Below, piece by piece: positions 21,820 through 27,127 of a DNA stretch of 64,000 bases (positions are counted from its first letter, which is position 1; every line of letters begins with the position of its first letter). Under the pieces are notes generated by a model, which saw only the letters and a program-made list of their open reading frames with translations, had not been told where the DNA came from and made no database searches. A program made the position numbers and the translations under genes. This stretch comes from Escherichia coli (GTDB lineage Bacteria > Pseudomonadota > Gammaproteobacteria > Enterobacterales > Enterobacteriaceae), in the NCBI RefSeq assembly GCF_009931435.1, contig NZ_CP043414.1; one strand, given 5' to 3'.

Positions 21820-23058
21820 TTAATCAGGCTTTGGACAACGTTGTTCCTTCCAGCTGGATACCGCCGCAATCCGCCGTCGGGTCAGCTCCTCGCGAATCTC
21901 CACACCTTTAAATCCCGCTTCAACGACGGCTTTTGTCGGCACTGACTGTGCCACTTCCCAGGCTTCGCGCAACCAGCGGCCTTGCGGGTAGTCCGCTGAT
22001 TCAAAACCGGTTCTGCCGCGCACATCAGCCTCGCTGGTCAGCGCCAGTTGCTCGACACGCTGCGGTTTACGCCAGGCGTCGATGGAATCAAATAGTTTGA
22101 CGATGGTTTTTGGGTTCAGCATTGGGAAGGTGTGGATGAGATCGTGAAACTCAGCCACCAGTCTGGCTAAATCGCGAATTTCATTTGGCACGCGCAGACG
22201 CTGGCATAGTTGTTCCACTAACTTCACACCCGCCGGGCCATGACCATGATGACGCGGCCAAAGTTCTGGCGGCGTCAGTCCTTTACCGAGATCGTGGCAT
22301 AGCGTTGCGAAACGGACATCGACCTGCGGACTTAGCATCGCCGCCATTGAGAGCGTCATTAAGGTGTGAATACCGGTGTCGATTTCCGGATGCCACTTGG
22401 CAGGGGCCGGAACGCCAAACAGGGCGTCAATTTCCGGGAATAAAACGCGCAGTGCGCCGCAATCGCGCAGTACCTGGAAGAACACCTGGGGATTGCGGGT
22501 AGTGAGGGCGCTTTCCGTCTCTTTCCACACCCGTTCAGGCGTCAGGTGTTCCAGTTCACCCGCGTGGGTCATCTCGCGCATCAGCGCCAGAGTTTCATCG
22601 GCAATACGAAAACCGAGGTGGGCATAACGCGCAGCAAAACGCGCCACGCGCAGTACGCGTAACGGATCTTCGCCAAAAGCGGGGGAAACATGGCGCAACA
22701 GACGATTTTGCAGATCGCCCAGACCGTTGTACGGGTCGATAATCTCGCCGTTATCGTCCTGGGCCAGCGCATTAATGGTCAGATCGCGCCGCTTAAGATC
22801 ATCTTCCAGCGTGACATCCGGTGCGGCATAGCAGGTAAAACCGGTGTAACCGGAACCGGATTTCCGTTCGGTACGTGCCAGCGCATACTCTTCATGCGTT
22901 TGCGGATGCAGAAAAACAGGAAAATCGCGGCCTACCTGCTGGTAGCCCGCGTCGAGCATCTCCTGTGGCGTACTACCGACTACCACCCAATCTCTGTCTT
23001 TGACCGGTAGCCCTAACAATGCATCCCGAACAGCACCACCGACCAGATAAATCTTCAC
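21820..23058 (-). CDS. cca: tRNA CCA-adding nucleotidyltransferase / phosphohydrolase
   Basis: ORF track 412 aa [28 protein letters not shown]. Confidence 0.95.
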
Positions 23059-23121
23059 GCCATCATCCCTTCGTCAAATACACAATTCCTAATAATAAGA
23101 CAGTGCAACGAAGAAGGCGAT

Positions 23122-23742
23122 TTAGTTCATCCAGCGATCTTTACGTTTGCGCGTTGGGATCAGGTGCGGCAGTACCAGACCGAGCAGCAAGCCAAGCCCC
23201 AGCACGCCGCCACCATACATAAACCACTGCATGATGATGGTGCGCTGTTTGTCATCCAGCTGCACGCTGGCGGCATCGACCTTTTTCTGCGCGACAATCA
23301 GCTCGTTTTTCAGTTTCTGATTTTCTTCTTTTAACCCGTTGATCACGCTGTCGCTCTGCGCCACTTTTTGCTGCATTTCTGCGGTGCGCTGATTCCAGGT
23401 GTTATCGATATTGGTGAGCTTATCGGTCAGGGTTTTGACCTGATTTTCCAGATCTGGCACACGGGAGCGCAGGCTTGGCTCTGTGCTAAGTTGTTTCAAC
23501 GGGATCCAGGCGGTACGGCCAGAGCTGTCTTTCACCTGGGCATAATTGGTGTTGGCGTCAGTTTGTAATAAGGTCACTTCCTCGCCGGCGTTAACCGTGC
23601 CCACGAGGCGATAATGGTCTCCCGGACCGCTACGGACCCAGGTATTCAGTTCGTCAGAAACATAGCGCGTTTCTTCAGCGTGTGAGACGGCAGTGGCGCT
23701 AAGCGCGAGTAAAGTTAATCCGATCAGGCGTAATTTTGGCAT
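23122..23742 (-). CDS. ygiM: SH3-domain membrane-anchored protein
   Basis: ORF track 206 aa; signal peptide, coiled-coil, C-terminal TM. Confidence 0.8.
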   Translation of the reverse strand: MPKLRLIGLTLLALSATAVSHAEETRYVSDELNTWVRSGPGDHYRLVGTVNAGEEVTLLQTDANTNYAQVKDSSGRTAWIPLKQLSTEPSLRSRVPDLENQVKTLTDKLTNIDNTWNQRTAEMQQKVAQSDSVINGLKEENQKLKNELIVAQKKVDAASVQLDDKQRTIIMQWFMYGGGVLGLGLLLGLVLPHLIPTRKRKDRWMN

Positions 23743-24084
23743 CAGGCTGTCGTTATTGTCATGGAAAGTGGAACGATAGTAGTGGCATCAGTGTCGCTAC
23801 GCAAAGCATTCGACATCAATCGGAATCCTCTGTGTCAGGTCTTGCCACTGCTTCAAACTTTTACGCCCGTCAAATTGCCCGTTGCATGGCAATTTGGCGC
23901 AAAATACTATCTACTGACAAAAAAGATCGCATTAAGTTCGCCGTTCATCGTCACTTATGTGACATAACCGATAAGTAAAGGCCTTGACATCCTCCCCCAC
24001 CTTCGCGCAAAGCGACTCAGGAGGGGGATTCCCTTGTCAGGGTAGCAATACGTTGCCGCATTGCCCGGTTCCTCGCTCGACGGC

Positions 24085-25290
24085 TTACGCCGCCTTACGG
24101 GCGCGTCCTTTACGGACTGACGGCAATATTTGTCCTGCCGCCATGACTTCAAAACCTGCTGTTAATATATTGCGAGCGCCGTTTACATCGGCGTTTGCCG
24201 TATAGCCGCACGCGGTACAGATAAAGCTCGCCTGCGTCCTGCGGTTATTTTTCGATGTATGCCCACAACATGCGCATTTCTGACTGGTGTACGCCGGATT
24301 AATCGCCAGCACATCACCGCCGCGCCATGCCTGCTTATATTCGAGCTGGCGGCGCATTTCTGCCCAGCCCTGATCCAGTATCGCCCGGTTAAGACCTGAT
24401 TTTGCCGCGACGTTGCGCCCCGGCTGGTCTACCGTACCCACTGCTGATTTTGACATGTTCGAAACCTTTAAATCCTCAATGACTATCATCGCGTGGTTTT
24501 TGCTGATCGTCGTCGTGGTTTTATGAAGGTAATCGCGGCGGATGTTTGCGATATGAGAGTGGAAACGGGAAATCTTCGCTTTCTGCTTTTTCCAGTTGGC
24601 GGAGAATTTAACCATCCGGGCCAGACGGCGCTGTAAGCGAGCCAGCTTATCCTGATTTTTTTTAAAGCTGTTTACCGGTTCAAAGACCGTGCCGTCTGAA
24701 AGTGTTGCCAGCTTTGTTATACCTGCATCCAGGCCTATTGCGCTGGTCGATGCGTGAATCGGATCGGTAACAGCTAATTCGACCTGAAAAGACACATACC
24801 AGTGTCCGGCATGCTGGCTGATGGTGCAATTTTTAATGACGCCTTCAATCTTCCGGGACTGACGAAATTTAACCCAGCCCAGTCCTGACGGGAGTTTCAC
24901 ACGGCCATAATCCAGCCCACAATATTTGCTGAAATTGACGAACCGGATAGAGTCGCAGCCTTTGGTTTTCTTTTTGAAAACGGGCTTTTCAGCCGTCAGG
25001 GATTTATCAAAACAGCGATCCCATGCGCTCCGCAGGTCTTTCAGTTTCTGCTGGAGGTTGTCAGTGTAACCCTCAGCAAGAAAGGCCAGCTCAGGGAGTT
25101 TTTTCCAGCCCGTAAGTCGTTTATTCAGGTCGAAAGCTGACAGAATTTTTCCGCCCGCGTCATGAATGCTCAGTGTTTCATTCAGTGCATAGTTCCAGAC
25201 AAAGCGAGCGCAACCGCACAACTGACGCAACCTTTGCGCCTGCTGGTCAGTGGGGTAGAGCCTGTATTTATATGCTTTCTGGATTAACAT
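24085..25290 (-). CDS. tnpB: TnpB (IS605 OrfB family, RuvC-like RNA-guided endonuclease)
   Basis: ORF track 24085..25353; likely start MLIQKAYKYRLYPTDQQ at 25290; RuvC motifs GLDAGI, IEDL, C-x2-C...C-x2-C zinc finger CACCGH...CTACGY, DVNGARNI. Confidence 0.85.
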   Translation of the reverse strand: MLIQKAYKYRLYPTDQQAQRLRQLCGCARFVWNYALNETLSIHDAGGKILSAFDLNKRLTGWKKLPELAFLAEGYTDNLQQKLKDLRSAWDRCFDKSLTAEKPVFKKKTKGCDSIRFVNFSKYCGLDYGRVKLPSGLGWVKFRQSRKIEGVIKNCTISQHAGHWYVSFQVELAVTDPIHASTSAIGLDAGITKLATLSDGTVFEPVNSFKKNQDKLARLQRRLARMVKFSANWKKQKAKISRFHSHIANIRRDYLHKTTTTISKNHAMIVIEDLKVSNMSKSAVGTVDQPGRNVAAKSGLNRAILDQGWAEMRRQLEYKQAWRGGDVLAINPAYTSQKCACCGHTSKNNRRTQASFICTACGYTANADVNGARNILTAGFEVMAAGQILPSVRKGRARKAA

Positions 25291-25356
25291 TTTGCATTCA
25301 GTATGTGGTTGTTTAGAATGTACAATATATCCACATTTTTTTGGGAGGGTCAATAC

Positions 25357-25755
25357 GTGTGCGAAATCAATCGTTCACGCTATTCAGCTTACCTGTTGCA
25401 TGTTCACGTTGTTTTTATGACAAAATACCGCCGTCCAGTTTTTGGTGAATTGCATCATGCAAACATGCGTCAGTATGTAGCGGAGGTATGCGCGGACTTT
25501 GGCGCCGAGTTAAAGGAATGTGACGGCGAGGCAGATCATGTTCACATGCTGATTGAATACCCACCGTTGGTGCAACTCACAAAGCTGGTAAACAGCCTTA
25601 AGTCCGTTACCAGTAGGCGGCTGCGGAATGATTTTATTGATTTGCGCGCCGCGTATTCAAAGCCCGTACTCTGGTCACGCTCTTATTTCATCGGTTCATG
25701 TGGTGGAGCACCGCTGGAAGTTGTGAAAAAGTATATTCAGAATCAGCGTGGCTGA
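25357..25755 (+). CDS. tnpA: IS200-type Y1 (HuH) transposase TnpA
   Basis: ORF track 25303..25755; probable GTG start 25357 after gggaggg SD; HuH motif HVHMLI and catalytic Tyr in SRSYFIGS. Confidence 0.8.
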   Translation: MCEINRSRYSAYLLHVHVVFMTKYRRPVFGELHHANMRQYVAEVCADFGAELKECDGEADHVHMLIEYPPLVQLTKLVNSLKSVTSRRLRNDFIDLRAAYSKPVLWSRSYFIGSCGGAPLEVVKKYIQNQRG

Positions 25756-25825
25756 TAAACTGCGGGCTTAACAGCCCAAATTCCCCTCCCGCCTACGTTG
25801 GGGGGGAGTACCCAGTGGAGGAAGG

Positions 25826-27127
25826 ATGGCTCAGGAAATCGAATTAAAGTTTATTGTTAATCACAGTGCCGTTGAGGCGTTGCGTGACCATCTCAATACG
25901 CTGGGCGGTGAGCACCATGACCCCGTGCAGTTGCTGAATATTTACTACGAAACGCCGGATAACTGGTTGCGTGAACACGATATGGGCTTACGTATTCGTG
26001 GCGAAAACGGCCGCTATGAGATGACCATGAAAGTCGCAGGAAGAGTGACTGGCGGTTTACACCAGCGCCCGGAATATAACGTGGCGTTGAGCGAACCGAC
26101 GCTCGAGCTAGCGCAGTTACCGACGGAAGTCTGGCCGAACGGTGAGTTACCAGCCGATCTCGCGTCCCGCGTGAAGCCACTGTTCAGCACCGATTTTTAT
26201 CGCGAAAAATGGCTGGTGGAACTCGATGGCAGCCGAATTGAAATCGCTCTCGATCAGGGCGAGGTGAAGGCAGGCGAATTTGCTGAGCCTATCTGCGAGC
26301 TGGAACTGGAGCTGCTTAGCGGCGATACGCGCGCGGTACTGAAACTGGCGAACCAACTGGTATCGCAAACCGGATTACGTCAGGGCAGCCTGAGCAAAGC
26401 CGCGCGCGGCTATCATCTGGCGCAGGGCAATCCCGCGCGTGAAATCAAACCGATCACCATTTTGCATGTTGCGGCAAAAGCTGATGTGGAACAGGGGCTG
26501 GAAGCGGCGCTCGAGCTGGCGTTAGCGCAATGGCAGTATCATGAAGAACTGTGGGTACGTGGCAACGATGCGGCGAAAGAGCAGGTGCTGGCAGCCATCG
26601 GTCTGGTCCGTCATACGCTGATGCTGTTCGGCGGTATTGTGCCGCGTAAAGCGAGCACTCACTTACGTGACCTGCTGACCCAATGCGAAGCGACCATCGT
26701 TTCTGCGGTATCTGCCGTGACGGCGGTCTACTCTACCGAAACGGCGATGGCGAAGCTGGCGTTGACCGAATGGCTGGTAAGCAAAGCCTGGCAGCCGTTT
26801 TTAGATGCCAAAGCGCAGGGCAAAATCAGCGATTCTTTCAAACGCTTTGCCGATATCCATCTTTCCCGCCATGCCGCTGAACTGAAAAGCGTTTTCTGCC
26901 AGCCATTAGGCGATCGCTACCGTGACCAATTGCCGCGCCTGAAGCGTGACATTGACTCAATATTGTTGCTGGCGGGTTACTACGATCCTCTCGTCGCGCA
27001 AGCCTGGCTGGAGAACTGGCAGGGACTGCGTCATGCCATTGCGACCGGGCAACGCATTGAAATTGAACATTTCCGTAATGAGGCAAACAATCAGGAACCG
27101 TTCTGGTTGCACAGCGGAAAACGTTAA
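25826..27127 (+). CDS. ygiF: Inorganic triphosphatase (CYTH domain)
   Basis: ORF track 433 aa [11 protein letters not shown]. Confidence 0.9.

Follow-up and report, generated by a model that had tools for sequence, protein, structure and literature searches.

A complete ISEc41-type IS200/IS605 element between the native Shine-Dalgarno sequence and the start codon of ygiF in Escherichia coli

The stretch of DNA analysed here, a 64-kb window of the Escherichia coli contig NZ_CP043414.1, includes the region cca-ygiM-ygiF-glnE, in which two divergent open reading frames (ORFs) separate ygiM from ygiF. With good confidence these belong to a complete, single-copy insertion sequence (IS) of the ISEc41 type in the IS200/IS605 family, placed 3' of a CCAT motif that is antisense to ygiF. 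The insertion lies exactly between the native Shine-Dalgarno (SD) sequence of ygiF and its ATG, and the element replaces this weak native signal by a stronger predicted one. A first-pass annotation made from the letters of the window had proposed an IS200/IS605 element with divergent tnpA and tnpB genes at this place; the observation is correct and its interpretation essentially right, and it concerns a known, annotated IS of a well-understood family, already catalogued in CFT073, Nissle 1917 and ATCC 25922. As a discovery the element therefore carries little weight, its family and likely mechanism having been described as well. What is added here is modest: the exact ends, the CCAT target, the replaced translation signal of ygiF, three alleles of the site, and a discordance between the element and its flanks.

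Comparison with the empty site of K-12 (JM109) delimits the insert to 23984-25825 (1842 bp): it follows ...TAAAGGCC and ends directly before the ygiF ATG. The junctions are unambiguous, the target motif is CCAT and no target bases are duplicated. The empty site, which reads ...GATAAGTAAAGGCC|ATGGCTCAGG, consists of spacer only, as the first-pass annotation had stated for K-12; its coordinates for the element, 23990-25810, gave the right location and fell slightly short at both ends. The ends are kept in related elements, and the flanks diverge beyond them. Because the 3' end of tnpB faces 23984, and because in this family the omega RNA and the right end (RE) follow tnpB, the active top strand of the element corresponds to the - strand of the window, with the left end (LE) at 25825 and RE at 23984. 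The whole element is 100% identical to the copy in E. coli R32_14_1F, and no further copies or solo ends were found in the window. The name ISEc41, an ISfinder name, is taken here solely from the RefSeq label of tnpA, “IS200/IS605-like element ISEc41 family transposase” (PGAP, WP_000266197.1); tnpB is labelled “RNA-guided endonuclease InsQ/TnpB family protein”. In the literature ISEc41 is mentioned in lists only. The features of the locus are as follows.

23984..25825, - strand: complete IS200/IS605 (ISEc41-type) element (K-12/JM109 empty-site comparison; end conservation in relatives)
24085..25290, - strand: tnpB, 401 aa, RNA-guided endonuclease family (NF040570; alignment with ISDra2 TnpB)
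25357..25755, + strand: tnpA, Y1 HUH transposase, 132 aa from GTG 25357 (NF033573; IS608 TnpA)
25291..25356, no strand: putative divergent promoter region, the 66-bp spacer between tnpB and tnpA (consensus matches only)
23984..24084, - strand: RE, non-coding; supplies the 3' portion of the predicted omega-RNA scaffold as well (hairpin fold; conserved terminus)
25756..25825, - strand: LE, with a small hairpin at 25764-25777 and the LE hairpin at 25783-25808 (fold; alignment with relatives)
25826..25829, - strand: target or transposon-adjacent motif (TAM) CCAT (present in the empty site; relatives)
23984..24203, - strand: predicted omega-RNA scaffold, which takes in RE and the 3' end of tnpB (fold; covariation)
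23964..23983, - strand: predicted omega-RNA guide, host DNA outside RE (position rule from PMC10055086)
25817..25821, + strand: IS-borne SD sequence GGAGG, 4 nt before the ygiF ATG (anti-SD duplex energy; kept in the scar allele described below)
25826..27127, + strand: ygiF (inorganic triphosphatase), intact, 433 aa; its native upstream sequence, 23743-23983, is now 1.84 kb away

Membership in the IS200/IS605 family is indicated by a Y1 HUH TnpA, by subterminal palindromes and by motif-specific insertion without target-site duplication. The predicted TnpA matches NF033573 with 139.9 bits (cutoff 55) and aligns to the TnpA of IS608 (2a6m, E = 1.5e-20), keeping the HUH histidines (as HVH) and the catalytic Tyr (within KKYIQNQ). 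TnpB covers positions 1-388 of 389 of the NCBIfam profile NF040570 (357 bits, E = 1.4e-106) and aligns over its whole length with ISDra2 TnpB (8bf8, E = 8e-49). Its RuvC triad, D188/E272/D368, falls on D191/E278/D361 of ISDra2, and both CxxC pairs of the zinc finger are present, at 339 and 358; the retained catalytic motifs and zinc finger described in the first-pass annotation are thus real, and none of the D/E/D residues is lost. From this we infer that TnpB would function as a nuclease. ISDra2 TnpB-omega RNA of Deinococcus radiodurans further shares a structured region at the tnpB 3' end and RE. It differs in the TAM (TTGAT, against the presumed CCAT here), in lacking the 15-residue insertion that follows the E272 strand in the window TnpB, and at the C-terminus.

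The start of tnpA suggests a small revision of the annotation. PGAP begins the gene at ATG 25303 (150 aa), which stands no more than 12 bp from the start of tnpB and is upstream of a promoter-like -10 hexamer. The spacer holds promoter-like sequences on both strands, TTGACC-18-TATATT on the - strand (25353-25324) and TTTGCA-17-TAGAAT on the + strand (25291-25319), and an SD sequence, GGGAGGG, stands 8 nt before GTG 25357. These sites fit GTG 25357 better than ATG 25303, and the sequence suggests a start at the former; the resulting 132-aa form of TnpA is deposited in databases.

The ends of the element carry the signals expected from IS608 of Helicobacter pylori, the model of the IS200/IS605 family, with which it shares the Y1 HUH TnpA, subterminal hairpins and the lack of a target duplication. 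In RE a hairpin occupies 23993-24028 (DNA fold z = -3.5), with GAAT (24028-24031, - strand) on its 5' side, and the end itself is formed by TCAA (reverse complement of 23984-23987), a putative cleavage motif; both motifs are identical to the published GR (GAAT) and CR (TCAA) of IS608 (PMC5934647). The RE terminus, ...GGAGGATGTCAA|, is kept in ~30 related loci of other genera, the flanks beyond it being unrelated. On the - strand the RE hairpin and the LE hairpin (25783-25808) both have a C-rich 5' arm and a G-rich 3' arm and so the same polarity, which agrees with the similar hairpins noted at both ends in the first-pass annotation, and both are kept in relatives with compensatory changes. On the top strand GGTA (reverse complement of 25809-25812) stands 5' of the LE hairpin as a putative DNA guide. 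It is complementary to CCAT position by position, and would pair with it as AAAG complements the target TTAC in IS608 (PMC5934647); the two elements thus differ in both target and guide. They differ also in gene order, tnpA and tnpB being divergent in the window, as in IS605, and co-directional in IS608. CCAT stands directly 5' of LE in all six of the closest relatives (6/6), whereas a more distant subgroup has TTAC or TTAT in its place.

At ygiF, the target CCAT is the reverse complement of ATGG, that is, of the start codon and the first base of codon 2, and the element therefore lies flush against the ATG. Its end had previously been placed 10-20 bp from the ribosome-binding site of ygiF; instead the element abuts the ATG (25826), and the GGAGG is inside the element, provided by its last bases, GTGGAGGAAGG. 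The predicted pairing with the 16S tail upstream of ygiF is -9.3 kcal/mol with the element and -3.5 in K-12. A terminator scan found no terminator-like site between tnpA and ygiF, and co-transcription of ygiF with tnpA, or its expression by read-through, is therefore likely; transcription of ygiF would run through the element or start within it.

The 3' part of tnpB together with RE is predicted to form an omega RNA. The last ~220 nt of the element plus 20 nt of flank fold with -111.5 kcal/mol (z = -5.0 against shuffles), and in an alignment of 27 family sequences compensatory changes occur at nine predicted pairs, among them those of a hairpin that coincides with synonymous positions in the TnpB C-terminus; the RE hairpin is at the same time a DNA signal for TnpA. 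Conservation in the non-coding RE (77-85%) equals or exceeds that of the coding part (75-79%). By the published position rule (PMC10055086) the guide would be 5'-GGCCUUUACUUAUCGGUUAU on the - strand, which covers the native SD region of ygiF. The empty site reads CCAT followed by exactly this sequence (CCAT-GGCCTTTACTTATCGG), and would therefore be the “donor joint” that TnpB cuts in the retention model (PMC10055086). An apparently broken hairpin of the omega RNA in the window copy, with AA and GA mispairs, was a MAFFT misalignment, the homologous GCGGCA...UGCCGU lying 21 nt downstream with a longer loop. An extra GC-rich stem-loop of 28 nt, AAAGGACGCGCCCGTAAGGCGGCGTAAG, is found at the tnpB stop codon (24100-24127, - strand); it is common to the E. 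coli and Klebsiella elements, is missing in most relatives, and shortens the TnpB C-terminus. The base that touches RE, 23983, is T and not C in 2013C-4282 (filled) and 2022H047 (empty), and the first position of the predicted guide and its target is therefore polymorphic in the population.

Taken together with published work on the family, these features suggest the following course of events. TnpA would excise the top strand in single-stranded form and insert it likewise (“peel and paste”). Transcription of the tnpB 3' end and RE would yield an omega RNA, with the 16-20 nt of host DNA beside RE (GGCCUUUACUUAUCGG...) as its guide; the site resealed upon excision, which consists of CCAT and the guide sequence, would then be cut by TnpB-omega RNA, and repair of the cut from a sister copy would retain the element.

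Within the species, we counted alleles of the site in 5,426 complete E. coli genomes and distinguished three.

Full element, at least 99.3% identity, both junctions as here, one copy: 146 genomes (2.7%)
63-bp scar: 10 genomes
Empty: the remainder (~97%, all lineages)

Queries specific for the junctions and for LE each returned 146 genomes, and the 156 records at 99% identity or more consist of the 146 full copies and the 10 scars. A count of 148 carriers with two possibly at another site was discarded on the basis of these queries; the extra two are presumably plasmid relatives of less than 90% identity. The element is thus not fixed in E. coli, unlike an ancestral fragment present at the site in all strains, and each carrier genome has one copy, always at the ygiM-ygiF site, with no second insertion site among the 5,426 genomes. 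Carriers include CFT073, Nissle 1917, ATCC 25922 and ABU 83972. In CFT073, Nissle 1917 and ATCC 25922 this site is occupied by the same element, with 99.5% identity over its 1842 bp, and the window copy differs from that of CFT073 by eight substitutions, one indel and four TnpB amino acids. The exact TnpA sequence is found on at least 1000 contigs. The scar, seen for example in E. coli RM14723, joins 23984-24028 to 25807-25825, so that a TCCCCC microhomology links the first 18 nt of LE to the hairpin and tail of RE, and the GGAGG is kept. It was rejected as an ancestral pre-insertion state, both parts being homologous to the RE and LE of elements in other genera.

The copies are far more alike than the DNA around them. 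Seven E. coli copies were compared; they have 26 variable sites, differ by at most 0.8%, and all keep full-length ORFs and the catalytic residues. Their pairwise synonymous divergence is 0-0.015 in tnpB and 0-0.02 in tnpA, whereas synonymous divergence in the adjacent host genes is about ten times higher, with up to 0.10 in cca and ygiM and 0.08-0.19 among six distinct ygiF haplotypes. The ygiF haplotypes switch 0-142 bp and 231-282 bp from the element end. Chance re-insertion at the same site was rejected, since CCAT occurs 497 times in the 64-kb window alone and independent hits on one of these sites are implausible. The element therefore either passed between lineages into the homologous site, or had its flanks overwritten up to its ends, by recombination. 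We conclude that recombination carried it from lineage to lineage into the same site, possibly with the help of TnpB.

Homing or gene-drive effects of TnpB have been discussed for plasmids (PMC11870625). In a natural RNA-guided homing of this kind, DNA of a carrier would enter an empty strain, TnpB-omega RNA would cut the CCAT-guide site at the ygiF start, which is universally conserved, and repair would copy the element in together with no more than tens to hundreds of bp of flanking DNA. This may account for near-identical copies at one site in at least six ygiF haplotypes with switches within 0-282 bp, and we consider it rather unlikely; ordinary homologous recombination, to which the region is prone, accounts for these data with no need of TnpB. 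When CFT073 was compared with its nearest empty relatives, no clear imported tract emerged around the element, with weak clustering only (5/10 right-flank differences within 424 bp) on too few sites.

Several observations weigh against an element that is intact in function as well as in sequence. An Rfam scan of 23000-27000 with E up to 1 gave no match for the predicted omega RNA. The single site and single copy in all 146 carriers leave no trace of recent transposition. Of the ~18 variable tnpB sites within E. coli, 12 are replacement changes in the protein (pN/pS ~0.3-0.8, from very few sites), and current constraint is therefore unproven. Throughout the 64 kb the + strand has a positive GC skew, which places the top strand on the leading-strand template; this is the orientation that IS200/IS605 elements reportedly disfavour (PMC6006769), and it might contribute to the element's stability. 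The only recognisable losses are imprecise, the ten genomes with a 63-bp deletion scar in place of a clean excision, which argues against present-day mobility, with the reservation that a clean excision would resemble a never-occupied site. All but the missing Rfam match would suit an element that is sequence-intact and yet immobile in E. coli, kept by vertical descent and homologous recombination and slowly decaying, and we regard this as a possibility to be taken seriously, if a doubtful one. It has to contend with the full-length ORFs and catalytic residues in all seven copies examined and with ends and guide motifs that are likewise intact; at a divergence of ~0.5%, any decay has had too little time to become visible. 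In comparison with plasmid relatives, tnpB has a dN/dS of 0.11-0.14 and tnpA one of 0.07-0.09, and the family is therefore under long-term purifying constraint. A low copy number is moreover typical of IS200-type elements, which takes weight from the single copy as a sign of immobility.

Two further explanations concern the presence of the element at ygiF itself. Its end could benefit the host by giving ygiF-glnE a new signal for translation and perhaps also for transcription, the filled site being a regulatory allele. The much stronger predicted 16S pairing of the GGAGG than of the K-12 sequence, the scar allele, which loses the genes yet keeps exactly the GGAGG-bearing end, and the lack of a terminator-like site from tnpA to ygiF would all fit. 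We nevertheless hold a host benefit to be quite unlikely: carriers make up just 2.7% of genomes, the microhomology between the hairpins explains the scar junction with no need for selection, and the GGAGG is not conserved in the LE of related elements and hence looks incidental. Alternatively, the element could be ancestral at the site and have been lost from K-12-like strains, by deletion in most rather than insertion in few. Excision by TnpA is seamless, and an empty site would then be indistinguishable from one never occupied (PMC10055086). This is highly improbable, given that ~97% of genomes, from all lineages, are empty and that in the same strains the flanking genes have about ten times the synonymous divergence of the IS (at most 0.015); the ancestor of the copies is therefore much more recent than that of the locus, which effectively refutes an ancestral presence. 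A complete IS200/IS605 element that inserted at CCAT and spread by recombination remains the reading that we prefer.

For this element, three points seem of modest use. Its TnpB is native to E. coli, the presumed TAM (CCAT) is defined and not T-rich, and nearly all strains of the species contain a natural target; the empty, filled and 63-bp scar sites form a natural three-allele series that alters the translation signal of ygiF-glnE; and the population pattern can be used to ask whether TnpB promotes spread between strains.

Related elements with the same gene order, RE end and CCAT target are found in Citrobacter and Klebsiella plasmids, Aeromonas, Xenorhabdus and others, the full-length Citrobacter and Klebsiella plasmid relatives having 74-77% nucleotide identity. 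No relative above ~80% amino-acid identity was found outside E. coli among 100,044 species representatives. While the relatives are plasmid-borne or multi-copy, the E. coli element is chromosomal, single-copy and confined to one site. In Buttiauxella warmboldiae at least six contig ends lie within copies of a related element, which indicates that relatives can be multi-copy. An E. coli plasmid (NZ_OZ547057.1, 211150-217301) carries an IS605-type cluster of two intact tnpB, one tnpA and one frameshifted tnpB, adjoining a RelE/Phd toxin-antitoxin pair; one of the tnpB is ~78% identical to that of the window. A 2-kb contig of Streptomyces mutabilis JCM 4400 holds an enterobacterial-type member of the IS family and is probably contamination.

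Minor observations concern the flanks. The segment 25826-28825 (ygiF and the 5' part of glnE) is unusually mosaic, carriers differing by 2.6-5.5% in nucleotides and 0.08-0.19 at synonymous sites. R32_14_1F equals the window over 3 kb of the left flank, across the IS and over the first 281 bp of ygiF, after which it diverges by ~7% per 200 bp; the best match of a complete genome to the window flanks is 98.7%. Around 21760, in the bacA-cca spacer, JM109 and RM14723 carry an extra insert of ~110 bp, REP-like in appearance, which the window and most carriers are without.

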